Source of the DNA: Bacteroidales bacterium
GTDB lineage: Bacteria > Bacteroidota > Bacteroidia > Bacteroidales > P3
Reading direction: 5' to 3'
NCBI GenBank assembly: GCA_045597945.1
Contig: JAZLLD010000055.1
Coordinates: 1,985-65,984, forward strand
DNA: 64,000 nucleotides
Positions 73-29,125 of this stretch are shown here, one piece after another. Position numbers and translations under genes: made by a program. Numbering within the stretch: the stretch's first letter is position 1; the number at the start of each line of letters is the position of its first letter. The notes below the pieces were generated by a model. That model was not told where the DNA came from. It saw only the letters and a list, made by a program, of their open reading frames with translations, and did no database searches.

Positions 73-1296
73 ATGAAAAAAATCGCTTTAATGTTGACTC
101 TCGCAGTCATCGGTTACGCAGTAAGCGCACAGTCGTTGAACGTGTCTAGTGCTCGTGAAGCTCAGAATCGCGGTTACTACGACAAAGCCAAAAAACTCAT
201 TGACGCTGCTTGCGAACACGAGCAGACCAAGAACGATGCCAAAACCTGGTACTATGCAGGTCTTATCTACAGCCAGATTGGTGGCGAGCAGGAGAAACCC
301 AGATCCAAGTACAAAGACCTCGATCCCGAGTGGCTGACCAAATGTAAAGATGCAGCACTCCGTTGCAAAGAACTCGATACCGATAAAGAATACGCCGAAG
401 GTAACAATGCCATCCTCAACTACGTCGGTAACGGTTACTACAAAAAAGCCCTCGATTCCTTCCAGGCTCAAAACTGGGACGAATGCATGGCTCTTGGCGA
501 AGAAGCCATCAAGATCTTCAACCAGACCGGCAGCAAGGAATTCGCTTCTCAGAGCTACATCCTCGTTGGTAAAGCCGCTATGAACGCCCACAACACCGAG
601 GCTGTCAACAAATACTTCTCCACCCTCATCCGCTATCGCACCAAAGAAGAACTGGTCTACAACACCCTCTTCAGAAACTACAAAGCCGCTGGCGATACCA
701 ACGCAGCTATCGATGTTGCTCAGAAATATGCCAAGAACTGCCCCGAAGACTTCCACTCCAACATGATGCTGGCCGAAGCCTACATGCTGAAAGGCAACAT
801 GGAGCAGGGCAATGCCGAAATCCAGAAAGCTCTTGACAAGACCAAAGACCAACCCGAACTCCATGCTAACCTCTTGGCAGCTGCAGGTGCTACCTACGAG
901 AGTGTCAACGACTTCGCCAACGCAGAATCTCGCTACGTCGAGTCCCTCAACACTCTGCCCAACCAGTTCCTCGCAAACTTCGGTCTTGGCAAAATGCTCT
1001 ACAACCGCGCTGTTGACAAACTGACTGAAGCTAACAATGTTCCCCCAGACGATGAGACCGGCCTCTACGACAAATTCCTCGACGAGTCCAAAGACTTCTT
1101 CCGCCAGTCCATCCCTTACTTCACCAACGCAATTGCCTTCATCGACAACCTCAGTGCTGAAGGCCAGGGTGCACAGCGTCAGAACCTCTTCAACTGCCTC
1201 AACGCATTGAACACCGTTTACGCACGTCTTGAGATGTATGACGAACTCAAACCCATCAAGGCTCGCATCGAAGAGCTCACCAAGGCTGCTCACTAA
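73..1296 (+). CDS. secreted TPR-like helical repeat protein (hypothetical)
   Basis: 407-aa ORF with ATG at 73. N-terminal signal peptide MKKIALMLTLAVIGYAVSAQS. Helical repeat-like composition. A hairpin terminator follows. Family not recognised. Confidence 0.6.
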   Translation: MKKIALMLTLAVIGYAVSAQSLNVSSAREAQNRGYYDKAKKLIDAACEHEQTKNDAKTWYYAGLIYSQIGGEQEKPRSKYKDLDPEWLTKCKDAALRCKELDTDKEYAEGNNAILNYVGNGYYKKALDSFQAQNWDECMALGEEAIKIFNQTGSKEFASQSYILVGKAAMNAHNTEAVNKYFSTLIRYRTKEELVYNTLFRNYKAAGDTNAAIDVAQKYAKNCPEDFHSNMMLAEAYMLKGNMEQGNAEIQKALDKTKDQPELHANLLAAAGATYESVNDFANAESRYVESLNTLPNQFLANFGLGKMLYNRAVDKLTEANNVPPDDETGLYDKFLDESKDFFRQSIPYFTNAIAFIDNLSAEGQGAQRQNLFNCLNALNTVYARLEMYDELKPIKARIEELTKAAH

Positions 1297-2165: not shown

Positions 2166-2495
2166 CTAAATTTCCGTGTATTTCTTTGCCGATCCTTTGG
2201 CTTTATCCACTGGATATTTTTCGGCATTTCGAGCAATCTTGGCCAGACAAATGTCCTTGACATCCAGATTGTATTTCATGGCAATGTGGAACGCATAATT
2301 AAAAACATCGGCCAATTCCTCCTTCACCTTATCCAGGTCCACATCCTCGGCCGACTTCCACAAAAAAGCCTCATTCAGTTCGGCGGCCTCGATACTCAAG
2401 GCCAACGCCAAATTCTTGCCATCATGGAACTGTTCCCAATCTCGCTCATCCGTAAAACGGCGCAAAGCTGCCATAACCTCTTCAATCTCAGTCAT
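2166..2495 (-). CDS. MazG-like nucleotide pyrophosphohydrolase (all-alpha NTP-PPase)
   Basis: 109 aa. The pattern RRFTDERDWEQFH...NLALALSIEAAELNE...EELADVFNY is typical of small MazG/dCTP-pyrophosphatase-like proteins. ATG at 2495. Own TAnnTTTG box at 2553-2560. Confidence 0.75.
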   Translation of the reverse strand: MTEIEEVMAALRRFTDERDWEQFHDGKNLALALSIEAAELNEAFLWKSAEDVDLDKVKEELADVFNYAFHIAMKYNLDVKDICLAKIARNAEKYPVDKAKGSAKKYTEI

Positions 2496-2552
2496 AATAC
2501 TAAATACTAAATTTACGATTATCCTTAAATCCTGCTATTTAATTTGTTTCTG

Positions 2553-2560
2553 CAAAAATA
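2553..2560 (-). promoter_or_regulatory. Bacteroidetes -7 box (TAttTTTG) for the MazG-like gene
   Basis: Plus strand caaaaata equals minus strand tatttttg, about 58 nt upstream of the ATG at 2495. Confidence 0.4.
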
Positions 2561-2660
2561 CGAAAAGTAAATGAACTACCAAAATCAAAAAACATTTTTT
2601 AAGAAATTTTCTTCTTTATTATGAAACTGCTGAAAACAAATTTTATAGATTACCGATATA

Positions 2661-3893
2661 TTATTCCAAACCAATCGATTTCTTCTTATTCAAATGCTCC
2701 AGAACCTTTCCAAGATGATATTCAACTACTTTGTTTTCAGCATCATAAACAATATCTGTTATTTGGATTAGCGCGGTTTCTCTATCCGTTGCATATCCCA
2801 CCCCCAGGCGCAAAATATCGTATGGTCGCAAATATCGCTTGCCATCAGCCGGGTCTAAATATGTATATCTGCTAATTGTGGTTTGTTTCAATTCTCTGTA
2901 TTCCACCTTCTTCTCTCCGCTGATAATTGCATCAAAATACACCCTTTCAATCGGCAATGTTAAAACCTTGAATCCTGTCAAATCGAAAGACGACCTCTCC
3001 CCTATTACAACACGTTCCAAACACTGCAATTTGCTGTTATACATATAGTTCACTATACTCCTATCCACAATCTTCTTCACAATCAAGTTTATCACCTTCA
3101 GCGGCACCACATACCATTCCTTAGGTTCATGCTCCACACCTTTCGTGTCCTTAACTCTTACATGAAATCTAGCTTCCTCTAACACCTGATGTATCAGATT
3201 TTCAAGCGTATGCGAATTCATATTCACCACCTTATATGTAGCCACAACCTCCACACCAGCCATCAGATATGTAGGATCATTCTCAGCATTGGCAATCCTT
3301 TCCTCCACAGTATTGGTAGTAAATCCTATCTTATATAAATCTGCCTGACTAGCAATGGCCGCATCTTCCGACAGCGATTTCAGCACATATATGTACCCCG
3401 TAATCTCGTCACTTTTTGTCAATTCAGAATTCTTTGTAAGCGAATCGCTTTGCTCTTCTTCTGTCTGGGTAATAATATAGCCGTTCAGCGACACATTCTT
3501 TCTCAGTGTCGACAAATATTCATCTTGCTCTGTTCCATTCTCATAAATACACCGTGTCCTAGCATTTCGCATACCATTCGAACCTTTTGAATACTCGCCT
3601 ATTCGTTCCAAATAAACAATAGTTCCGTCAACCACATAGAAATTGCCCTCTGAGAAATTCTCCGATTTTCCCGACTTCAGCAAAATGCGCTTCCCATCCT
3701 TCAGCTCCTGCCTTACTTTGGCAAACAAAGGCTCATAATCCTCAAAGTTCTCACAACGAACTCTTTGTGCCACATGGTCAGCCTTCTTTTTTGCCGACTT
3801 AGCCTTCTGCATATCTTCCGGAACATCAAATAGGCTAGCCATAGTTTCGTCTATTTCCAATAGCGGATCGTTCAAAATGTCGTCTAGATTCAT
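2661..3893 (-). CDS. T5orf172/Mug113 (GIY-YIG superfamily) domain protein with C-terminal ASCH/PUA-like domain
   Basis: 410 aa. Central block GYIYVLKS...LYKIGFTTNTVEERIANAE...EWYVVPL matches the T5orf172 signature. The C-terminal VYFDAIISGEKKVEYRELK...YDILRLGVGY resembles ASCH/DUF3850-type PUA-like folds. ATG lies 2 nt after the upstream stop. Confidence 0.7.
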   Translation of the reverse strand: MNLDDILNDPLLEIDETMASLFDVPEDMQKAKSAKKKADHVAQRVRCENFEDYEPLFAKVRQELKDGKRILLKSGKSENFSEGNFYVVDGTIVYLERIGEYSKGSNGMRNARTRCIYENGTEQDEYLSTLRKNVSLNGYIITQTEEEQSDSLTKNSELTKSDEITGYIYVLKSLSEDAAIASQADLYKIGFTTNTVEERIANAENDPTYLMAGVEVVATYKVVNMNSHTLENLIHQVLEEARFHVRVKDTKGVEHEPKEWYVVPLKVINLIVKKIVDRSIVNYMYNSKLQCLERVVIGERSSFDLTGFKVLTLPIERVYFDAIISGEKKVEYRELKQTTISRYTYLDPADGKRYLRPYDILRLGVGYATDRETALIQITDIVYDAENKVVEYHLGKVLEHLNKKKSIGLE

Positions 3894-3895
3894 AT

Positions 3896-4150
3896 CTACA
3901 AAATATTACTCGTGTCGTAAGGTTCCAACAATTCTTTTTCTTTGCGCAAAGCCGCCAATGCTCTGCACAGCATCTTCTCAGCCAAGTCGCCGTTGGCTTG
4001 TGGCTCTCTTCCATGCGCTGCAATCCAGTCTGCCACCTCCTGCAACTTCTGCACCTTGCGGTCGTCAGCCGTCATCGGTTGCGGCTTCAACTTCACATCC
4101 GCCAGCAGCGGATCGTCAAATATTTCCAACAATTCTTTCGGCCAATCCAT
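3896..4150 (-). CDS. small hypothetical protein (84 aa) of the MTase-helicase operon
   Basis: Its ATG (4148-4150) overlaps the helicase stop (4150-4152) as TAATG. It shares an N-terminal (I/L)x(D/N)DPLL motif with the next protein. Family not recognised. Confidence 0.5.
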   Translation of the reverse strand: MDWPKELLEIFDDPLLADVKLKPQPMTADDRKVQKLQEVADWIAAHGREPQANGDLAEKMLCRALAALRKEKELLEPYDTSNIL

Positions 4151-6168
4151 TACAATTCATCATTATAGTCCAACCCCTTCAATCTTCTCAACTTCAAGTT
4201 TACAAGTTTCTGGAAGGCTGCCGCCAACTCCCTCACCTTGGGGTCGGGGTCGTCAGCCGATGGCTTTTGGCCATCATGCTCTTCCAAATATTTCTTATAA
4301 GGTCCTTGAAACAACATCACGGCCTGCTCCATCGTCATATCTATCTTCATCTCTGCCAAGGTGTCCTGAATCACTCTCAGCACCTCGGCATCCACATTCT
4401 TCGACACAATCTCGTATGCCCGCTGGAATGGATTGATAGACTCTATCAAGTTGATATGCAGCTTGCTCAAGTCAATCATTCGGTTCGTCAGTTTCAGGAA
4501 TCTGTTGCCTTCGCTTTCCGTGTCCTCGCCATTACCAAATTTGCTCACATCAATGGCATTGCCGTCCTTATCCACCACCTCATTGCTCTTGAACAGAATA
4601 TTCAGCATTGTCCTATGCGACACGGCTTCCACATCATCATCCGTCAGCTCAGGGTATGTCTCCCTCACAATCTTAGGAATCAACACCTTAGTTATCGTCT
4701 CTGCGGTAGTGTTCCCACTGATGGCCTTCTGTATATGCACATCCTGCAATATTGTAGCCGTCAGGTCATCCAGTTGCTCATCCACAATTTGCTTAGCCTT
4801 CACGCTTCCCAGCGGCTTCAATCCTTCAACCACTACCGTCCTTACCACGTCCATACCTTCCAGCACCTTAATACCTTCTAGCTTAGTATGGAAATGCCAC
4901 TGTGGTGCCATCACTTGCTCCATAAGCAGCGACGCTGTGATAGCTTTCAAAAAGTCGTTCACCGCCACCTTCACATCCGGCTGTTCGGCATCAGGCATGG
5001 CAATCATATTCACAAACCTTGCTGTGCTCTTGCCTTCGCAGTCGCGTGTGCACCTTCCGATAATCTGCACAATCTCTGTCAGCGAACCCCTCACGCCTAT
5101 GGTCAGACACATCTCACACCATGCCCAGTCGAAACCCTCTTTGGCAGTTCCTAGGGCAATAATGATGTCCATGTCCTCAGCCCGGGTCATGTTTTGCAGA
5201 TAGCCATACACATGATTCCTCACCTCTGGCGCATCTTCCACCAAGTCAGCCACTTTCAGCACCCTGCCGTCAGGTGTTCGCATCTCGTAAATACCATTAT
5301 CCCTCCTCACCTCCGTACCTATATAGGCCATAATGTCGGCCACCTCTTGATATTTCGACCCCGTGCTGGCTCGGCTATTCACACTCGGAATATGGATGAT
5401 AGTCTTCTTCGTAGTGTCAAGCACCTCGCCTATATGGTCCAAATACGAACCCGAATAGAAATGATAGCCCAAAACCAAGTTTTTCAAATATTTATAGCCG
5501 TTCAACTGCTGATAGTAGTTGTATGTCACCGGGGTAAATCTGGCCTCGTCCTCTGCCCGCAGCACAGGCACACCGTCGCCTCGGAAATACGAACCAGTCA
5601 TGGCCACGATATGCGCCGTCGAATTGTTCATCACCCTTCTCACAATCTCGCCCAATCCGCTTTCAGCATCGGCACTCGTGTGGTGGAACTCATCTATGGC
5701 CAATAAACAGTTGTCAAACCGATTATCGTCTATCATCTTCATACCGTTGCGCAGCGTGGCATGAGCGCATATCAAAATCCTCTCTTGGCAATCATCGCGC
5801 ATAAACTCGCAGAATCGGCCGGCCTTGTCGGTCTCATTCTCTACATCGCATAGATTAAAGTATGGCTTCACTTTCCAATCGTCAAAGAAGCCAAAATCTG
5901 TTAGTTGCGTATCTTTAAACGAGCGACCAATACTCTTTTCCGGCACAGCCACCACCACCTTTTTCAGCCCCTGATTTCTCAGCTTGTCCAAAGCTATAAA
6001 CATCAGTGCGCGACTCTTGCCGCTGGCGGGGGGCGCTTTGATTAGCAGAAAACGTTCGTTGCGCTGGGCGTAGGCCTTGGCCTGCATCTCGCGCATACCC
6101 AGTTCGTTGGTCAAACTGCTGCTCCCTTTTTGCGAATAGTTCACTTGTATAGTCAGATTATCTTTCAT
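4150..6168 (-). CDS. SF2 (DEAD/DEAH, Res-like) helicase/ATPase
   Basis: 672 aa. Walker A APPASGKS, motif II DEFHH, motif III MTGS, motif VI QIIGRCTRD. The about 230-aa C-terminal region is unassigned. No nuclease motif seen by eye. Confidence 0.85.
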   Translation of the reverse strand: MKDNLTIQVNYSQKGSSSLTNELGMREMQAKAYAQRNERFLLIKAPPASGKSRALMFIALDKLRNQGLKKVVVAVPEKSIGRSFKDTQLTDFGFFDDWKVKPYFNLCDVENETDKAGRFCEFMRDDCQERILICAHATLRNGMKMIDDNRFDNCLLAIDEFHHTSADAESGLGEIVRRVMNNSTAHIVAMTGSYFRGDGVPVLRAEDEARFTPVTYNYYQQLNGYKYLKNLVLGYHFYSGSYLDHIGEVLDTTKKTIIHIPSVNSRASTGSKYQEVADIMAYIGTEVRRDNGIYEMRTPDGRVLKVADLVEDAPEVRNHVYGYLQNMTRAEDMDIIIALGTAKEGFDWAWCEMCLTIGVRGSLTEIVQIIGRCTRDCEGKSTARFVNMIAMPDAEQPDVKVAVNDFLKAITASLLMEQVMAPQWHFHTKLEGIKVLEGMDVVRTVVVEGLKPLGSVKAKQIVDEQLDDLTATILQDVHIQKAISGNTTAETITKVLIPKIVRETYPELTDDDVEAVSHRTMLNILFKSNEVVDKDGNAIDVSKFGNGEDTESEGNRFLKLTNRMIDLSKLHINLIESINPFQRAYEIVSKNVDAEVLRVIQDTLAEMKIDMTMEQAVMLFQGPYKKYLEEHDGQKPSADDPDPKVRELAAAFQKLVNLKLRRLKGLDYNDEL

Positions 6169-6172
6169 AATA

Positions 6173-8926
6173 TCATTTCTTAGCTTTGGTCATTTTTTCA
6201 TATAGTTTGAAGAGGCACTCCAGTCTGGCCTCATCGTTGGCAAACGGATAGCCCGGATAGCAGCTCTCCACCACATCGTCCAACTTCTGGTGAGCCTCAC
6301 GCAATGGCTCGGGCATCTTGTCGGGGTCGTAAAGATCGGCAAGAGTTGCGCCAGGATAGTCCTCGCGTGTCAGCAACACCTCCTCAGCTGCCGCTTCAAT
6401 CTCTTTCTTCTTCGTTTCGGTCAGTTTGGGAAATGGGAAGGAGTTGTAACAGAGGCTAGTATATCGATAATCAGTCTTCAACTTTCCTCCAATTGTCTTC
6501 ATCCATACCATACTCATTAATGATGTACACACTCCGAACACCCAGATAGGACAAGATTGAATCATATACATGGCATTTGTAACAACCATCTGAGTATTAG
6601 CGTATCCCATTGGGATATACAATCTATTTTCAGATGAAGTAGACGGAATCACAAGCGTACAGTCATCACAAGAAATGAATTCTCTAAATTGATAAGGTTT
6701 CACCGCAAGGGCATTAGCTCCCTCATCAGAACTAGACAATCTCATTTTTTTTGTTTTTTCAACTCTTTCATAAATAAACGAATATTTTAATGCATCTTTT
6801 TCATCTTCATCTGAGATCCACAAACAATATCTTATATTTCCTTTTATATAATCCGCCGCACTATATAATTCTTTAATATACTTATCATTGCCTATCTCAT
6901 TTATAAGTTCGTCTTTTTCGCTCAATGACAATATTAAATTACCACCATCATAAGGCATACACCCTCTTATGATAATAGGCAAACTTGATATAGGTTTTGT
7001 TTGTTTAAACACTACAAGTTGCGCACCGTCTGTTAAATATGGCGATATTGAATTTGCATATCTTTTTTCATTACCCACAAACAAAACCTTTTGTTTATTG
7101 ACGCAAGAAAGCCCAACAATTACACATATAACAGCAGCATTTTTTCTTGCATTATTTCTCCATTTAAATGAAGTATATGCAAAATCAATATTTACACCAG
7201 ATTTATATATTGCCGTCCATAATGGTTCAACCATCTCCCCTTGACAAATTGAATTAGTACTCACAAAAGCACATTTTGATTTAGTCTTTTTGATATATTC
7301 AGCACCTTTAATAAACCAAACACCAATATAATCTATTTTTTTGTATCCTTTATATTTACCAATGGACACTTTCATGTCGTTTTTTTGTTCTGATGTTTGT
7401 AAGCTAACACCCAAATACGGCGGATTGCCAAACACAAACACTTCTTCATCTTTGGTATGGGGGCAGACTTCGTTCCAATCCATACGACACGCATTGCCAA
7501 GTCTGATTTGGGTGATGTTTTGCAGAGGCAGCGCATGGGTGTTGATGCCAAAGTCTTTCATCAACTTCCTATTCATCTGATGCTGTGCCAACCATAGCGA
7601 CAGCATGGTCATCTCATGCGGAAAGTCCTGCAACTCTATGCCATAGAACTGCTGCAATGTAATGACCGATGAATCCATCTGCGTCAGCAAACCATATTGG
7701 ATAGTGCATTCTTGCATCAGCTTCAAGATTTCCATCTCCAGCAATCTCAACCGCTTGTAGGTGATAATCAAGAAATTGCCACTGCCACATGCGGGGTCGA
7801 AGAATTTCATCTTGCTCATACGCTTCAGCAGTTTTTGGCAACTCTGCATCACGGGCTTACATTCTTGCTCATACTGATTGCCGCTACTGATGCCCAAATC
7901 TCTGCGCTCTTTGATGCCGCTATGTACATCTTTTATCTTTTTAAATTCTTCTTGCAACTCATCCATAAACAGCGGATTAATCACCTTCAGGATGTTAGGC
8001 ACACTGGTATAGTGCATTCCCTGGTTGGCTCTCACTTCGGGGTTGACTACGGCCTGTATCATGCTGCCAAAGATATCGGGGTTGATTTCTTTCCAGTCCA
8101 GGCTGCCGCAGTCCACCATAATCTTGCGAGCCCGGCGGCTAAGTTTCGGAATCTGAATAGGATGGCTGAACAGTCCGCCATTGACATAGGGGAAATGCTT
8201 TACCACAGCTTTGGTTTCTTTGGTGCGACTCTTCTCCGGGATGTCCATAATGGCAAAAGCCTCAGACAGATAATCACTCAGGTCGCTACCATCTTCCAGC
8301 GTATAGCTCTTGATACTGTTGGTGAAAAGGTTGTCGGGGAAGATGCCGGTATCTTCGGCAAAGTAGCAGAACAAAAGCCTGGAGATGAATATATTGAGGT
8401 CGTGGAGGTCGGTGTCGCTCGTAAACTCATTGAAGGCACGTATCTCATCGTGCAGCTTGGCAAGCTTTTCGGCTGCCTTCACATCGGCGGGACTTTCCTC
8501 CACATTATGCACCCGCTCCACATCGGCCAAGGGATAAAAGAAATTGAAATCGTAGCATAGGCCAGCCAGTCGATTCTCGTAGGTGTCGTTCTCGCGCAGG
8601 TCGTAGGCTAGCATGGTCTCGCCGTCGCTCACCATGGCTATCTTTGGTTTGGCGGCCAGCACCCTGGTGTCGGCTTTCATCTGCTCCAGTTCGGCAGTCA
8701 TATCCTTGGCCGTTGAGGTGCGGTAGGCGATTAAGTTTTTGATTAGCAGACCGTCGTAGCTTTTCACCACTCCTTTGCCCTCTCGCCAGCGGCGGATGTC
8801 GGCATCGGTCTTGCCAAAACTATAGAGCAGCCGAAATGGAACATCGTCGGCTGCCACAGTATTGTCTTTGAAACATTTGAGTCTTTGTTCTATCTCCTGA
8901 TAGCCAAGCTGTGTTTTCTTTGCCAT
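6173..8926 (-). CDS. MmeI-family (Type IIL/ISP-like) gamma-class N6-adenine DNA methyltransferase with TRD
   Basis: 917 aa. Motif I FFDPACGSGNFL, motif IV FGNPPYLG, upstream GMHYTS motif. C-terminal LADLYDPDKMPEPLREAHQKLD...EARLECLFKLYEKM tail is typical of MmeI-like enzymes. AT-rich central TRD. Confidence 0.85.
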   Translation of the reverse strand: MAKKTQLGYQEIEQRLKCFKDNTVAADDVPFRLLYSFGKTDADIRRWREGKGVVKSYDGLLIKNLIAYRTSTAKDMTAELEQMKADTRVLAAKPKIAMVSDGETMLAYDLRENDTYENRLAGLCYDFNFFYPLADVERVHNVEESPADVKAAEKLAKLHDEIRAFNEFTSDTDLHDLNIFISRLLFCYFAEDTGIFPDNLFTNSIKSYTLEDGSDLSDYLSEAFAIMDIPEKSRTKETKAVVKHFPYVNGGLFSHPIQIPKLSRRARKIMVDCGSLDWKEINPDIFGSMIQAVVNPEVRANQGMHYTSVPNILKVINPLFMDELQEEFKKIKDVHSGIKERRDLGISSGNQYEQECKPVMQSCQKLLKRMSKMKFFDPACGSGNFLIITYKRLRLLEMEILKLMQECTIQYGLLTQMDSSVITLQQFYGIELQDFPHEMTMLSLWLAQHQMNRKLMKDFGINTHALPLQNITQIRLGNACRMDWNEVCPHTKDEEVFVFGNPPYLGVSLQTSEQKNDMKVSIGKYKGYKKIDYIGVWFIKGAEYIKKTKSKCAFVSTNSICQGEMVEPLWTAIYKSGVNIDFAYTSFKWRNNARKNAAVICVIVGLSCVNKQKVLFVGNEKRYANSISPYLTDGAQLVVFKQTKPISSLPIIIRGCMPYDGGNLILSLSEKDELINEIGNDKYIKELYSAADYIKGNIRYCLWISDEDEKDALKYSFIYERVEKTKKMRLSSSDEGANALAVKPYQFREFISCDDCTLVIPSTSSENRLYIPMGYANTQMVVTNAMYMIQSCPIWVFGVCTSLMSMVWMKTIGGKLKTDYRYTSLCYNSFPFPKLTETKKKEIEAAAEEVLLTREDYPGATLADLYDPDKMPEPLREAHQKLDDVVESCYPGYPFANDEARLECLFKLYEKMTKAKK

Positions 8927-9023
8927 ACTTTCAGATATTTTCCAGCATCGGGTGTGGAACTATCTGATCAAATTATGTATGGCTTTCGCATCAGGGCAAC
9001 AAAAAAGGGTGCAAGCCCTCTTA

Positions 9024-9232
9024 CGGTCGTCTGAGGCGTAAGCGTAGGAATTCTCTGGCCTCTCCTTCAATAAGATTGATGCTTGACCCTATAAGGGTGC
9101 AAGTCATCGTTCTATCAACATTGAAGGATTGCTGGCTTTGATTATTCCACGCTATATGTGGTAAAGCCAACCATCATTGATGTGGTAAATATCAGAGAGA
9201 TTAAGTTTCCTACGCTTACTTTCGTGACGACC
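9024..9232. ncRNA. candidate structured RNA / long-range inverted-repeat element in the MTase operon leader
   Basis: Interrupted 26-bp closing stem: 9025-9031/9226-9232, 9038-9050/9207-9219 (13 bp perfect), 9052-9057/9193-9198. It encloses about 135 nt with at least three internal helices. Strand and class undetermined. Confidence 0.35.
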
Positions 9233-9341
9233 ACAATGATAGTCTGATGCTGCTATATGTTTATTTTTAAACTATTTGTACTTTACTTCTTCTTGTTTGT
9301 ATTCAATAATTAATAATGTTATTATATATATATTCCAATTG

Positions 9342-9349
9342 CAAAGATA
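9342..9349 (-). promoter_or_regulatory. -7 box (TAtcTTTG) of the MTase-helicase-T5orf172 operon
   Basis: Plus strand caaagata within ttgcaaagatacgaa, the same context as promoters of many genes in this window. About 415 nt upstream of the ATG at 8926. Confidence 0.45.
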
Positions 9350-9372
9350 CGAATTTTTTTCGTATTAGCGAA

Positions 9373-9380
9373 TATCTTTG
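9373..9380 (+). promoter_or_regulatory. divergent plus-strand -7 box (TAtcTTTG) with no downstream ORF
   Basis: tatctttg lies on the plus strand, 24 nt from the minus-strand box. The two flank the palindrome atacgaa-ttttt-ttcgtat. Confidence 0.35.
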
Positions 9381-10044
9381 TTGATTTTGTTGCAAATAAT
9401 TCTTTCTGCAAATTGTTTCAGCGGGAGTCCACCCCTACCCTTCTTGGCGGATGATGGGAATATAAAATGTAGAATGGCTGCCACTCCGGTTTTATGATCG
9501 ATTGGAGTATTTTTTTTATTCTTCAGCCACTAAACTACCAAGCAGTTATGCTCATTACCTATAAACGTGTTGGTACGCTGTAACTCCGTTGTAGCTCCGT
9601 TGATTCTACGGGGTGAAGAAGGCTGTCACAGGCAGCCTTCGATAGCGTAGCGGAGAAATCAACCACTCTGGGGAGCGGATCCTCAGGGGGTGGACAAAGA
9701 ATGTATGATACCCCTAAAATATAGAATCTAGAATGGATTTTTGCAACACTATGCACATTTGTGTGTAATCAATGTGTTATGCGATTCTATATTCTAGATT
9801 TATGGTCATATTGATGTGGCGGACAGCTATTGATAGTGCGAATACTAGTTTGTTACCATTTGAATAACAGGTATTAAATAGCCAATCTGTCACGAACATT
9901 CAATACCAGAGGTTTTGACGCAGATATAGAATCTTGGTTCTATATCTAGAATGCAAATCCGACACAATGAGTGATTCTGCCACTAAACAACTAAGCAAAC
10001 TCGTTGGCGGGTCGCACATTTGTCGCCGATATGCGGATAATCGC

Positions 10045-10082
10045 AAAAAAGGAAGCCCCGAAATCTCAGGGCTTCCTTTTTG
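10045..10082 (-). terminator. glyA terminator (bidirectional hairpin)
   Basis: Stem ggaagccc (10051-10058) / gggcttcc (10069-10076), flanked by an A-run and a T-run, 35 nt downstream of the glyA stop. Confidence 0.7.
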
Positions 10083-10116
10083 GATATGTTTTGGAGTCTG
10101 TTGACCCCAGAATCTA

Positions 10117-11982: not shown

Positions 11983-13038
11983 TCAGCCGAGGCCATTGAG
12001 TTTCATTGCATTGACAATATGTGCTTTATGGCGTTCGATCAGGGTGTCGGGGCTGAGCACACGGCAGCAATCGCAGTAGTACAGGAGAGAGCCCTCAAGT
12101 TCCTGGTTGACTTTGACATTTAGTTTCACGTCAAGCACTCTCTCGCCATCCACTTCAATCCATTTGGCTTTCTGCGAACCATGCAGCGGACAGTTTTCAA
12201 CATATGGCGCAGCCCAACCAACAAATTGCAGATGAATATCTTCCGGAGGGTTGGGAGTGTTAATGACACCGATGAAATCCTCAAAATAAGACTCCGGGTC
12301 GAAATTGGCATTGATATAAGGGTCGGTGCAGGGCTTGATGGCCTGGATGCGGTCCATGGCAATGGTCTGGATTTCATTAGGTTTCTCGGTCGTGACACCG
12401 AAAGCATACCAGAAGCCGCGGAACTGCTTGAAATAGCACGGATGGAAGTGATATGTGCAATGTCCGCGCTTGAAACAGCCATATTCAATGGTCAGCGGCT
12501 GGTGGTCTTGGATGGCTGTGAAAATCTGCTCGAAATGCTTGTAGACCTCCATGGCACGGGGACCGCCTAAGTCGGGGTTGACATCCAGCTGGATGCGAGG
12601 CACATTGCTTTTGTGTTTGGAAATGGCGCTCATGCCGTTGAACGACTCCTGAATCCACGCAATCTGGGGCAGCCCCATGATAACGTCGAGACATTCCATG
12701 GCCGAGGTAATGCAGACCACCTGCTTGGTTGTCAGCGGCATGTGGTCGATACTGAAACTGGGGTCGTGGTAGCGGTAGGCCGTGTAGGGGCGGTTGTGGC
12801 CGTGCTCATCGGGGCGGATGATGCGGAAAGTGTCGATCTCGGCATCCAAACCATCTGGCGACCGCATATAGGCAATGTCCACATAGAGCTGGCGCTCGCC
12901 CACGGGCTTTGGATTGGCAGTCTCGCTAAGGCCGCGGTTAACCTCTTCCAAGAGGTCGGCAAGGGTATAATCACGCGAGATGTCGCGGAAACATTTGTCG
13001 AGCAAACGATAGCGCTGGATAGCTTTATTAGAGACCAT
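11983..13038 (-). CDS. WYL-domain transcriptional regulator (HTH-WYL)
   Basis: 351 aa. N-terminal HTH-like KAIQRYRLLDKCF...LADLLEEV. WYL-type motif FRGFWYAFG. Confidence 0.65.
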   Translation of the reverse strand: MVSNKAIQRYRLLDKCFRDISRDYTLADLLEEVNRGLSETANPKPVGERQLYVDIAYMRSPDGLDAEIDTFRIIRPDEHGHNRPYTAYRYHDPSFSIDHMPLTTKQVVCITSAMECLDVIMGLPQIAWIQESFNGMSAISKHKSNVPRIQLDVNPDLGGPRAMEVYKHFEQIFTAIQDHQPLTIEYGCFKRGHCTYHFHPCYFKQFRGFWYAFGVTTEKPNEIQTIAMDRIQAIKPCTDPYINANFDPESYFEDFIGVINTPNPPEDIHLQFVGWAAPYVENCPLHGSQKAKWIEVDGERVLDVKLNVKVNQELEGSLLYYCDCCRVLSPDTLIERHKAHIVNAMKLNGLG

Positions 13039-28997: not shown

Positions 28998-29125
28998 ATG
29001 ACCTTCTTCTTCCATCCGGACTTTCACCGTCGGTCTCGGAATTTCGCCGAGTCAGTTCCCCTGGGGGAAGTAGCGGACTATCACCGCCGGAAAGGACTTT
29101 CACCTTACCCTGAAGACTGTTCCAA
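28998..29125 (-). promoter_or_regulatory. FMN riboswitch (RFN element) in the ribD leader
   Basis: The minus strand reads ...gtcttcagggtaaggtgaaagtcctttccggcggtgatagtccgc...ggcgaaattccgagaccgacggtgaaagtccggatggaagaagaagg. This matches conserved RFN blocks including the P1 closing tcttc/gaaga. Confidence 0.85.

Follow-up and report, generated by a model that had tools for sequence, protein, structure and literature searches.

A family of structured leader RNAs with two competing folds before restriction-modification operons of gut and rumen Bacteroidales

The operon and the element in its leader

We analyzed a 64-kb window of JAZLLD010000055.1, a contig of a metagenome-assembled Bacteroidales genome, in which a highly structured element at positions 9024-9232 lies in the leader of an operon encoding a restriction-modification (R-M) system. 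The element forms the core of a family of cis-acting, structured RNAs, not described before, in the leaders of R-M and DNA-modification operons of gut and rumen Bacteroidales. Covariation supports each of two folds of this RNA that are incompatible with one another. Through the competition of these folds the leader probably gates the expression of R-M genes that are potentially self-toxic. The promoter and the genes of the operon are arranged as follows:

9342..9349, minus strand: promoter box TAnnTTTG of the Bacteroidetes -7 type (tatctttg), some 85 nt ahead of the conserved RNA
2661..8926, minus strand: operon of an MmeI-family type IIG R-M enzyme, a helicase, an 84-aa open reading frame (ORF) and a T5orf172 protein
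6173-8926, minus strand: MmeI-family type IIG R-M enzyme, 917 aa, with its ATG at 8926
4150-6168, minus strand: ResIII/DEAD helicase (Pfam, PADLOC)
3896-4150, minus strand: 84-aa ORF
2661-3893, minus strand: T5orf172 protein

The R-M enzyme carries five MmeI Pfam domains and is classified by PADLOC as REase_MTase_IIG (E = 4e-290); an exact-sequence look-up of the protein returned no record. The order of the four genes is repeated at loci L001-L003 and L084 (related loci are numbered with the prefix L throughout), and upstream of the operon lies glyA, which has its own terminator. The promoter box and the ATG, between which the initial annotation had placed the element, were both found in the sequence. 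The leader is 416 nt long in the window, and a mean 5' untranslated region (UTR) of about 70 nt has been described for Segatella copri (bioRxiv 10.1101/2024.04.05.588293).

All pairings proposed for the element in the initial annotation are present at their plus-strand coordinates. Read on the transcribed minus strand, with the plus-strand letters in parentheses, they define the parts of a closed structure:

9226..9232, minus strand: P1 5' strand GGUCGUC, pairing with 9025-9031 (ggtcgtc 9025-9031 / gacgacc 9226-9232); six variants, all complementary
9207..9219, minus strand: P2 5' strand GUAAGCGUAGGAA, pairing with 9038-9050 (gtaagcgtaggaa 9038-9050 / ttcctacgcttac 9207-9219, 13 perfect pairs); 99% of alignment cells paired
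9199-9206, minus strand: conserved bulge ACUUAAUC, 5' of the P2a strand
9193..9198, minus strand: P2a 5' strand UCUCUG, pairing with 9052-9057 (tctctg 9052-9057 / cagaga 9193-9198); 5 of 5 counted pairs doubly changed
9133..9169, minus strand: P3 variable hairpin (closing strands tggcttt 9133-9139 / aaagcca 9163-9169), in every member, of varying length
9064..9127, minus strand: extended hairpin of P4, internal loop and P5, with P4 at 9120-9127 / 9064-9071 (ccttcaat 9064-9071 / attgaagg 9120-9127) and the P5 hairpin at 9078-9108
9109-9119 and 9072-9077, minus strand: P4/P5 internal loop, GUUGAUAGAAC and AAUCUU
9025..9057, minus strand: 3' strands of P2a (9052-9057), P2 (9038-9050), b1 (9033-9037) and P1 (9025-9031)

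The minimum free energy (MFE) structure of 9015-9245 reproduces this architecture. On the transcribed strand its energy is -85.4 kcal/mol, compared with -52 +/- 4.7 kcal/mol for 200 dinucleotide shuffles, none of which folded equally well (z = -7.09); the plus strand gave z = -7.60. The hairpin-rich stretch is a real structure, far beyond chance. The 10-mer agggtgcaag, which had been seen twice (9006-9015 and 9094-9103), does recur, and its duplication is explained by a segment downstream of the closing stem, termed Y below, that mimics the 5' strand of P5 and so permits an alternative pairing with a segment X. The boundaries 9024-9232 hold for the closed core, whereas the conserved unit is larger: it runs from about 9262, in the 5' tail, past the closing stem, takes in 9006-9024 and a U-tract at 9001-9006, and has linked elements that extend to the start codon. 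The module measures about 260 nt from 5' tail to U-tract and about 330 nt with a downstream box included.

Relatives of the leader and the operons behind them

We found 22 members of the family, each in the same orientation and directly upstream of an operon. The same leader occurs at the loci of close MmeI homologues (L001-L003, L095-L097), and a sequence profile run over 80 loci of GTDB species representatives placed it before the MmeI gene in L010, L012, L033, L034, L038 and L047. A scan of metagenome DNA that ignored genes, with a pattern of two invariant motifs (TAGGAAACTT N18-36 AATGATGGTTGGC), recovered 11 loci (9 distinct) with one copy apiece; the same pattern gave no match in viral contigs. 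At the nine distinct loci the element is always in sense orientation, 60-250 nt upstream of the first ORF, and eight of them are R-M or DNA-modification operons of unrelated families with no protein in common. The genes behind the leader in the scan loci are:

L084: MmeI, helicase and T5orf172
L085 / L091: EcoRI-like type II methyltransferase (MTase) and GmrSD/HNH type II restriction endonuclease (REase)
L087, L089, L090/L093, L094: short MTase, Eco57I-like MTase and T5orf172-helicase, together resembling a split type IIG enzyme
L092: C5 MTase (Dcm) and type II REase
L088: DUF4007 protein
L086: sulfatase-family membrane protein

The first gene encodes an MTase dependent on S-adenosylmethionine (SAM) in seven of the eight distinct R-M or DNA-modification loci from the scan, and these enzymes belong to four unrelated families. 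Variants of the leader do not track operon type (the P1 variant GGUCGUC, for example, stands before MmeI, EcoRI-MTase and DUF4007 operons), which indicates that the module has been exchanged between operons. The initial annotation had proposed a search for dispersed copies as a means of telling a leader from a mobile element; all 22 copies proved to be sense and 5' of an operon, and none was found elsewhere in about 1.1 Mb of loci. Of the 17 loci with enough upstream sequence (L010 and L084 counted separately), 10 have a TAnnTTTG box at a distance of 41-189 nt upstream of the element. No reverse transcriptase was found in the window operon or in five other operon types (Pfam, PADLOC), and a retron msr/msd or another noncoding RNA (ncRNA) templating such an enzyme was accordingly rejected.

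A de Bruijn graph breaks where a sequence occurs in a sample behind more than one upstream neighbor. Five independent Logan contigs begin at the first conserved base of the leader, AGCAGCAUCAG (L001, L003, L095 and L097, at position 1), or 3 nt before it (L096, at position 4); the assembly graph therefore branches at the edge of the leader, implying several upstream contexts per sample. In L092 the 5' half of the element is present a second time in part: the 5' strands of P1, P2 and P2a recur between the U-tract and the Dcm gene (2525-2639, minus strand), followed by a second AUGAUAG box. This partial copy is probably a recombination scar.

Other conserved leaders also precede MmeI homologues. 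A diverged type-2 leader was found about 280 nt upstream of the homologue at twelve GTDB loci (L011, L014, L016, L018, L021, L022, L024, L026, L030, L067, L071 and L073) and in L098 and L099. Its outer stems differ (ACGUCUC/GAGACGU and GCUUGGCCG/CGGCCAAGC), and its P4-loop-P5 module is homologous to that of the type-1 leader described above. A type-3 leader lies about 400 nt upstream at fourteen loci (L004, L006, L013, L019, L020, L023, L027, L028, L029, L032, L035, L036, L039 and L069), which include two complete genomes of Segatella copri (HDE04, HDD04) and two loci within one metagenome-assembled genome (L023, L032); it reuses the motifs GGCGUAGG/CCUACGCC, CUUAUC and UGAUAG. In L098 a tRNA gene (704-777, plus strand, 67.9 bits) lies about 450 nt upstream of the type-2 leader, which suggests an island inserted beside the tRNA.

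The family matches no known RNA class, as the initial annotation had supposed: scans of the window and 13 related loci with Rfam 15 gave nothing for the element. No match overlapped the element in the window even at E <= 10, none reached the gathering threshold in 7 homologous loci, and none had E <= 1 in 6 further loci that included type-2 and type-3 leaders. The families covered include SAM and S-adenosylhomocysteine (SAH) riboswitches, T-box, Bacteroidales-1, RAGATH, HEARO and group I/II introns; a T-box was considered and rejected. Full-text literature searches combining riboswitch, attenuation or ncRNA with restriction-modification, Prevotella and Bacteroidales found no description of the leader. 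Across the whole 64-kb window a single Rfam family exceeded its gathering score, the flavin mononucleotide riboswitch RF00050, at 29000-29121 (minus strand; 96.8 bits, E = 4e-21).

The surroundings of the operon offer some further observations. The MmeI homologues of L001, L002 and L095-L097 share 76-99% nucleotide identity with the window gene (6173-8926) outside one block of about 1 kb, roughly nt 1800-2800 from the start of the leader, where identity falls to 50-77% in four of the five comparisons (89-96% in L001). Judged from the sequences, this block is a case of target-recognition domain swapping, which accounts for the low identity of the MmeI proteins. At the nucleotide level the leader (86-97% identity) is just moderately more conserved than most of the coding sequence (76-99%), and the view of a leader much more strongly conserved than the protein does not hold. 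In L002 a pair of genes for an AAA_15 ATPase and a DUF4435 protein (2369-4256) is inserted between glyA and the leader, where the window has about 770 nt of non-coding DNA (9350-10116), and the DNA downstream of glyA has the look of a hotspot for defence genes. WYL regulators frequently control defence systems, and a WYL-domain protein (11983-13038, minus strand; Pfam WYL, PADLOC WYL E = 1e-20) is encoded upstream of glyA, about 3 kb from the R-M operon.

Two folds of one RNA

Folded individually, 17 of 17 aligned homologues adopt the same plan of P1-P2-P2a, P3 and P4-P5, despite differing stem sequences. In this closed structure (fold A), P1 of 7-10 bp is followed by an internal loop (GAAA / GCCUC), P2 with 10-13 perfect pairs, a bulge (ACUU..), P2a of roughly 6 bp, a junction carrying the invariant strand ..CCACAUCAAUGAUGGUU, the variable P3 (extended by a 75-nt insertion in L089), P4 of 8-12 bp, an internal loop (..AAGAUAG.. 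/ ..UCUUAU) and P5 of 11-15 bp. On the MAFFT alignment, 93% of the cells are paired in fold A and 15 pairs show double changes, a level reached in none of 500 shuffles; slid controls were 36-50% paired. A test that needs no alignment agreed, cognate strands surpassing non-cognate ones in duplex energy for P1, P2, P2a, P4 and P5 (permutation p = 0.0002, 13 lineages). The covariance model on the raw MAFFT alignment of P4-P5 recovered 6 pairs only, and a structure-guided alignment of 25 sequences, five type-2 leaders among them, was used instead; it was 92% paired, with 17 pairs doubly changed and double changes in 130 cells, and no shuffle of 500 attained this covariation.

The compensatory changes are spread over the stems. 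Four pairs of P2 have double changes (e.g., C-G in 9 and G-C in 8), P2a exists as UCUCUG/CAGAGA, GUGUAA/UUACAC, UUUGGA/UCCAAA and GCGUAA/UUACGU, and P4 is compensated at 12 of its 13 pairs (91.7% paired, with 92.5% for P5). Changes in homologues therefore bear out the helices, a check that the initial annotation had asked for. The helices of the sense strand are rich in G.U pairs (U.G in 17 of 17 sequences at the P0 columns 16/89, P0 being a helix described below; G.U in 9 at columns 238/272), and such pairs would be A.C mismatches on the opposite strand. Consequently, the selected molecule is the sense RNA and neither the antisense strand nor duplex DNA. A single-stranded DNA promoter was rejected on account of these same helices and of the lack of a conjugation context.

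RNAalifold, applied to the MAFFT alignment, returned not fold A but a second set of helices, P0, b1 and X:Y (fold B), in which 96.6% of the cells are paired and 6 pairs are doubly changed (slid controls, 38-60%). Its segments, and those that link it to the start codon, are:

9232..9254, minus strand: conserved 5' tail AGCAGCAUCAGACUAUCAUUGUG, nearly invariant in 19 members; 9232-9244 form the P0 5' strand
9169..9184, minus strand: junction J2a/3 CACAUCAAUGAUGGUU, the P0 3' strand, containing AUGAUG
9058..9062, minus strand: b1 5' strand GAGGC, pairing with GCCUC 9033-9037 of the P1/P2 internal loop
9070..9090, minus strand: segment X, made of the P5 3' strand, a linker and CUUAU; pairs inside P4-P5 or with Y
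9006-9024, minus strand: segment Y GUAAGAGGGCUUGCACCCU, running into the U-tract UUUUUU 9001-9006; pairs with X or in a local hairpin
8958..8967, minus strand: downstream box UCAGAUAGUU, complementary to the 5' tail (GACUAUC) and locally paired with UAUCUGA 8931-8937
8922..8983, minus strand: start-codon-masking hairpin, GCCAUAC 8977-8983 with GUAUGGC 8922-8928 (ATG 8926-8924)

In P0 the tail GACUAUCAUUGUG pairs with the junction CAC..CAAUGAUGGUU, 100% paired over 11 bp, and divergent lineages supply compensatory positions (C-G to U.G to U-A, and G-C to U-A); the part AAUGAUGGUUGGC of the junction is invariant in 17 members and served as a scan pattern. The b1 strand GAGGC lies immediately before the 3' strand of P2a. 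All 80 of its alignment cells are paired, and 3 of its 5 positions covary (G-C/A-U/C-G, A-U/G-C, U-A/C-G). Segment X pairs with UAAGA..GCUUGCACCC and the helix ends exactly at the conserved U-tract, a U-rich run that directly follows Y in all members. This X:Y helix has 17-22 bp, with a G+C-rich segment of about 9-10 bp abutting the tract. In each of the 19 members the duplex has an energy between -17.5 and -26.4 kcal/mol and surpasses the P5 duplex in strength; the pairing is lineage-specific (p = 0.0002). The type-2 leaders repeat the design: a CUUAUC/GAUAAG plus GUGGGC/GUCCAC helix abuts the U-tract, and X:Y reaches 20 bp and -23 to -26 kcal/mol. This recurrence in diverged leaders is the best argument for X:Y and the U-tract as a functional unit.

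When the X:Y pairs were enforced, P0 and b1 appeared together in the best nested structure, and all three therefore belong to one coherent alternative fold; constraints on pairing direction alone did not yield fold B. X:Y shares nucleotides with both P5 and the local hairpin and directly excludes them. The incompatibility of P0 and b1 with the stacked P1-P2-P2a should follow from a geometric argument rather than a computation, since coexistence would require a 1-nt linker to bridge 19 bp and would leave the P2 strands within the loop that P0 closes. The local hairpin (AAGAGGG/CCCUUUU) has energies of -3.8 to -9.2 kcal/mol, A:U pairs with the tract included. It contains three G-C pairs only, falls short of a G+C-rich stem of at least 5 bp, and was not called by the terminator scan. 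A purely thermodynamic two-state switch was rejected, fold B being too unstable.

Conserved complementarity also reaches the start-codon region. In 17 of 18 distinct leaders UAAGA is followed at a distance of 37-81 nt by an (A/G)AUAG box, replaced by GGUAG in L047, and the 5-bp core of the box with the tail is 100% paired, with one C-G to U-A change; in L034 and L038 a G to A change in the box matches C to U in the tail. In full-leader MFE structures the AUG lay in or directly beside a helix in all 10 members folded, and was fully paired in the window, L033, L087, L010 and L047. MmeI-type leaders show an additional complementarity of the far 5' tail, GCAUCAG (9244-9250, minus strand), with CUGAUGC (8988-8994, minus strand) just after the U-tract; in the whole-leader MFE this helix closes over the entire element, and it is not conserved in other operon types. 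The AUGAUG of the junction (window 9170-9178, minus strand), whose start P0 would mask, begins ORFs that range from 4 to 41 codons, among them MMVG* and MMVGFTTYSVE*. In the aligned sequences these ORFs are conserved neither in length nor in sequence, and their differing ends fall mostly in P3. A leader-peptide attenuator was rejected on these grounds.

A proposed switch, its rivals and known systems

We propose that the leader is a bistable cis-acting attenuator in which a start codon that is masked and a long-range terminator that forms conditionally answer to a trigger supplied by the host, a model that we consider about as likely as not. X:Y with the U-tract would act as a conditional intrinsic terminator, being the only strong hairpin followed by a U-tract in the leader. 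Fold A would sequester X, allowing RNA polymerase to read through, and would free the 5' tail to pair with the downstream GAUAG box, an event that would relax the start-codon-masking hairpin. Fold B would terminate transcription and keep the start codon masked. Fold A is energetically favored, so that fold B should need a trigger; and because the operons share no protein, this trigger is expected to come from the host and to be common to all of them. Candidates are a kinetic lock by an early-forming P0, a host factor or a metabolite with its target in the invariant tail and junction or in the conserved P4/P5 internal loop, and a factor that occupies the 5' strand of P4-P5. One signal could in this manner govern several R-M systems.

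A number of points weigh against this proposal. By nearest-neighbor energies fold A is favored over fold B by 10-33 kcal/mol in the full RNA, and in the 3' half alone fold B is still 0.3-20 kcal/mol less stable, P4-P5 winning. X:Y requires the 5' strand of P4-P5 to be removed or occupied, and we found no agent that does so. P0 and b1 could be tertiary pseudoknots of a single compact fold, and P0 and the tail-box pairing draw on few independent substitutions, both of their sides being nearly invariant. The local hairpin, with its G-C/G.U variation and the U-tract, could be the real terminator, which would invert the polarity of the switch; we infer both that polarity and the transcription start. 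The sample comprises 22 sequences from about 13 lineages, and in L086 the leader precedes the gene for a sulfatase-family membrane protein and not an R-M gene.

Of the readings offered in the initial annotation, that of a cis-regulatory leader is upheld by the covariation, by the position on the sense strand between promoter and first gene, and by the helices linking U-tract and start-codon region. The element may also be an RNA component of the R-M system, against which stands the absence of any protein shared by the operons behind it. The reading as a miniature inverted-repeat transposable element (MITE), a non-autonomous insertion with 26-nt imperfect terminal inverted repeats that came into the leader by chance, did not survive and seems to us scarcely credible. 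The outer stems do resemble inverted repeats, the same sequence stands before unrelated operons, assembly graphs break at its 5' edge, and L092 has the partial second copy of the 5' half. However, the 64-kb window holds the element once and each locus has one full copy, always in the same orientation, with none antisense or outside a 5' leader in the 1.1 Mb. The phage, plasmid and viral collections held no copies (BLAST against plasmids and phages gave an A/T-rich chance match only), no target-site duplication flanks 9024-9232, and conservation continues beyond both supposed repeats. Furthermore, the stems carry compensatory substitutions and are G.U-rich on the sense strand only. A non-switching element, either a module for processing or stability (such as a substrate of RNase III or RNase E, or a 5' stabilizer) or a trans-acting small RNA (sRNA) ending at the U-tract, is improbable in our view, although less far-fetched than an insertion. 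Its alternative helices would be folds of cleavage products, and fold B indeed consists of two independent hairpin domains split by a single-stranded 45-nt stretch with a conserved A/U-rich loop, as a cleaved RNA would refold. The helices are long and near-perfect (13 perfect pairs in P2, about 25 bp in P4-P5) and the U-tract could terminate an sRNA of about 350 nt, but a pure stability element leaves unexplained the invariant junction and the lineage-wide mimicry of the P4-P5 5' strand by Y, and the complementarity that reaches the start-codon region argues for action in cis.

Two further explanations differ from our proposal mainly in what sets the switch, and we consider each of them unlikely. 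The leader could be a metabolite-sensing riboswitch, a special case of the bistable attenuator in which SAM or SAH (the obvious candidates) or a nucleotide alarmone decides between folds A and B. A complex junction with many invariant unpaired nucleotides (AAUGAUGGUUGGC, UAGGAAACUU, GAAA, CUUAU), an alternative helix that adjoins the U-tract as an expression platform would, the SAM-dependent MTases that make up seven of eight first genes in four unrelated families, and the lack of a shared operon protein to serve as effector all favor it. Yet even at E <= 10 there is no similarity to models of SAM, SAH or other riboswitches, and the DUF4007 and sulfatase-family first genes do not encode methyltransferases. 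Riboswitch aptamers are usually marginally stable without ligand, and a fold A that is already 10-33 kcal/mol more stable speaks mildly against one stabilized by a ligand. Alternatively, the leader could be a zipper-type attenuator that senses no metabolite and damps potentially toxic, horizontally acquired R-M genes either constitutively, at a constant low level, or to a level set by a host RNA-binding protein, its alternative helices serving co-transcriptional folding and splitting transcripts into terminated and read-through ones. The leader of the pLS20 conjugation operon, possibly triggered by a protein, provides a precedent (PMC13401043). In MFE folds P1 can be lengthened by pairing of the 5' tail with UAAGA, which makes up the 5' half of the local hairpin. 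The start codon is masked in every leader type that was folded, and GAUAG/GAUGG motifs, which recur in the P4/P5 loop as well as in the junction and the downstream box, could be protein sites. The extension is, however, short and G.U-rich and shows no covariation, both sides being invariant, the best-supported alternative helix is X:Y and not a longer P1, and no candidate protein was identified.

Whatever sets the folds, R-M systems are self-toxic, and their expression must be limited and timed. The controls known to us (C proteins, promoter methylation, antisense RNAs) are each private to one system. Here, one RNA module absent from Rfam and from the literature searched heads six or more unrelated types of R-M and DNA-modification operons in gut and rumen Bacteroidales, and a diverged relative heads many more MmeI-type genes, including those of Prevotella and Segatella, which suggests a shared, portable layer of RNA-level control for defence genes in a major phylum of the gut microbiota. 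Loss of SAM would make restriction lethal to the host, and some phages deplete it. It is a tentative and rather doubtful idea that the leader is the first riboswitch-like sensor dedicated to R-M and defence operons and responds to one host signal, SAM availability or an alarmone of infection or stress; if so, several unrelated R-M systems of one cell would be under common control at the RNA level. The two incompatible covarying folds provide a concrete switch that can be tested by mutation, and a candidate orphan riboswitch. The leader may also explain the poor or variable expression of Bacteroidales R-M genes and be relevant to making Prevotella and Segatella strains genetically tractable.

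Compared with transcriptional riboswitches, the leader has the same combination of a covarying multi-helix 5' UTR fold, an invariant junction, and a competing helix that shares a strand and abuts a U-tract. The domain is conserved and covarying, and its place in the 5' UTR follows from the promoter box and the ORF; X would pair with the P5 5' strand or with Y at the U-tract, both pairings being lineage-specific, in the manner of a predicted expression platform. Unlike those riboswitches, it has no Rfam match, its closed fold is far more stable than the alternative, and the genes regulated are R-M genes. We know of no riboswitch for R-M systems, and our literature searches found none. The leader likewise resembles 1:2 / 2:3 / 3:4 attenuators (trp, pyrBI; Bacteroid-trp leader RF01692) in that four segments follow one another (the P4-P5 5' strand, X, Y and then CCC with the U-tract) and the middle two can each pair with either neighbor. 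In contrast to the trp and pyrBI attenuators, there is no conserved leader peptide and the 3:4 hairpin is very weak.

The closest mechanistic analogue that we found is the zipper-type attenuator cATT of the pLS20 conjugation operon, whose leader has a long central stem and flanking complementary sequences that overlap the terminator, and whose trigger was not identified, its authors suggesting a possible protein (PMC13401043). Both are leaders of about 400 nt before a horizontally transferred operon, with a long central stem, two exclusive conformations and no identified trigger. In MFE folds of our leader the tail UC-UUGU can pair with GUAAGA, which would add 4-8 weak pairs, both sequences being too invariant for covariation to bear on them. 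The pLS20 attenuator belongs to Gram-positive plasmids, however, and has no homology in sequence or structure to the Bacteroidales leader. Its central element is a single long stem where ours is a branched junction with invariant nucleotides, and its alternative helix extends that stem, whereas X:Y invades an internal hairpin and ends at the U-tract.

With the C-protein and antisense-RNA controls of type II R-M systems the leader shares a presumed purpose, that of limiting or timing the expression of REase and MTase. None of the annotated operons headed by the leader has a gene for a C protein. Those controls each serve one R-M system by means of a DNA-binding protein or a short antisense transcript, whereas the Bacteroidales module spans unrelated types.

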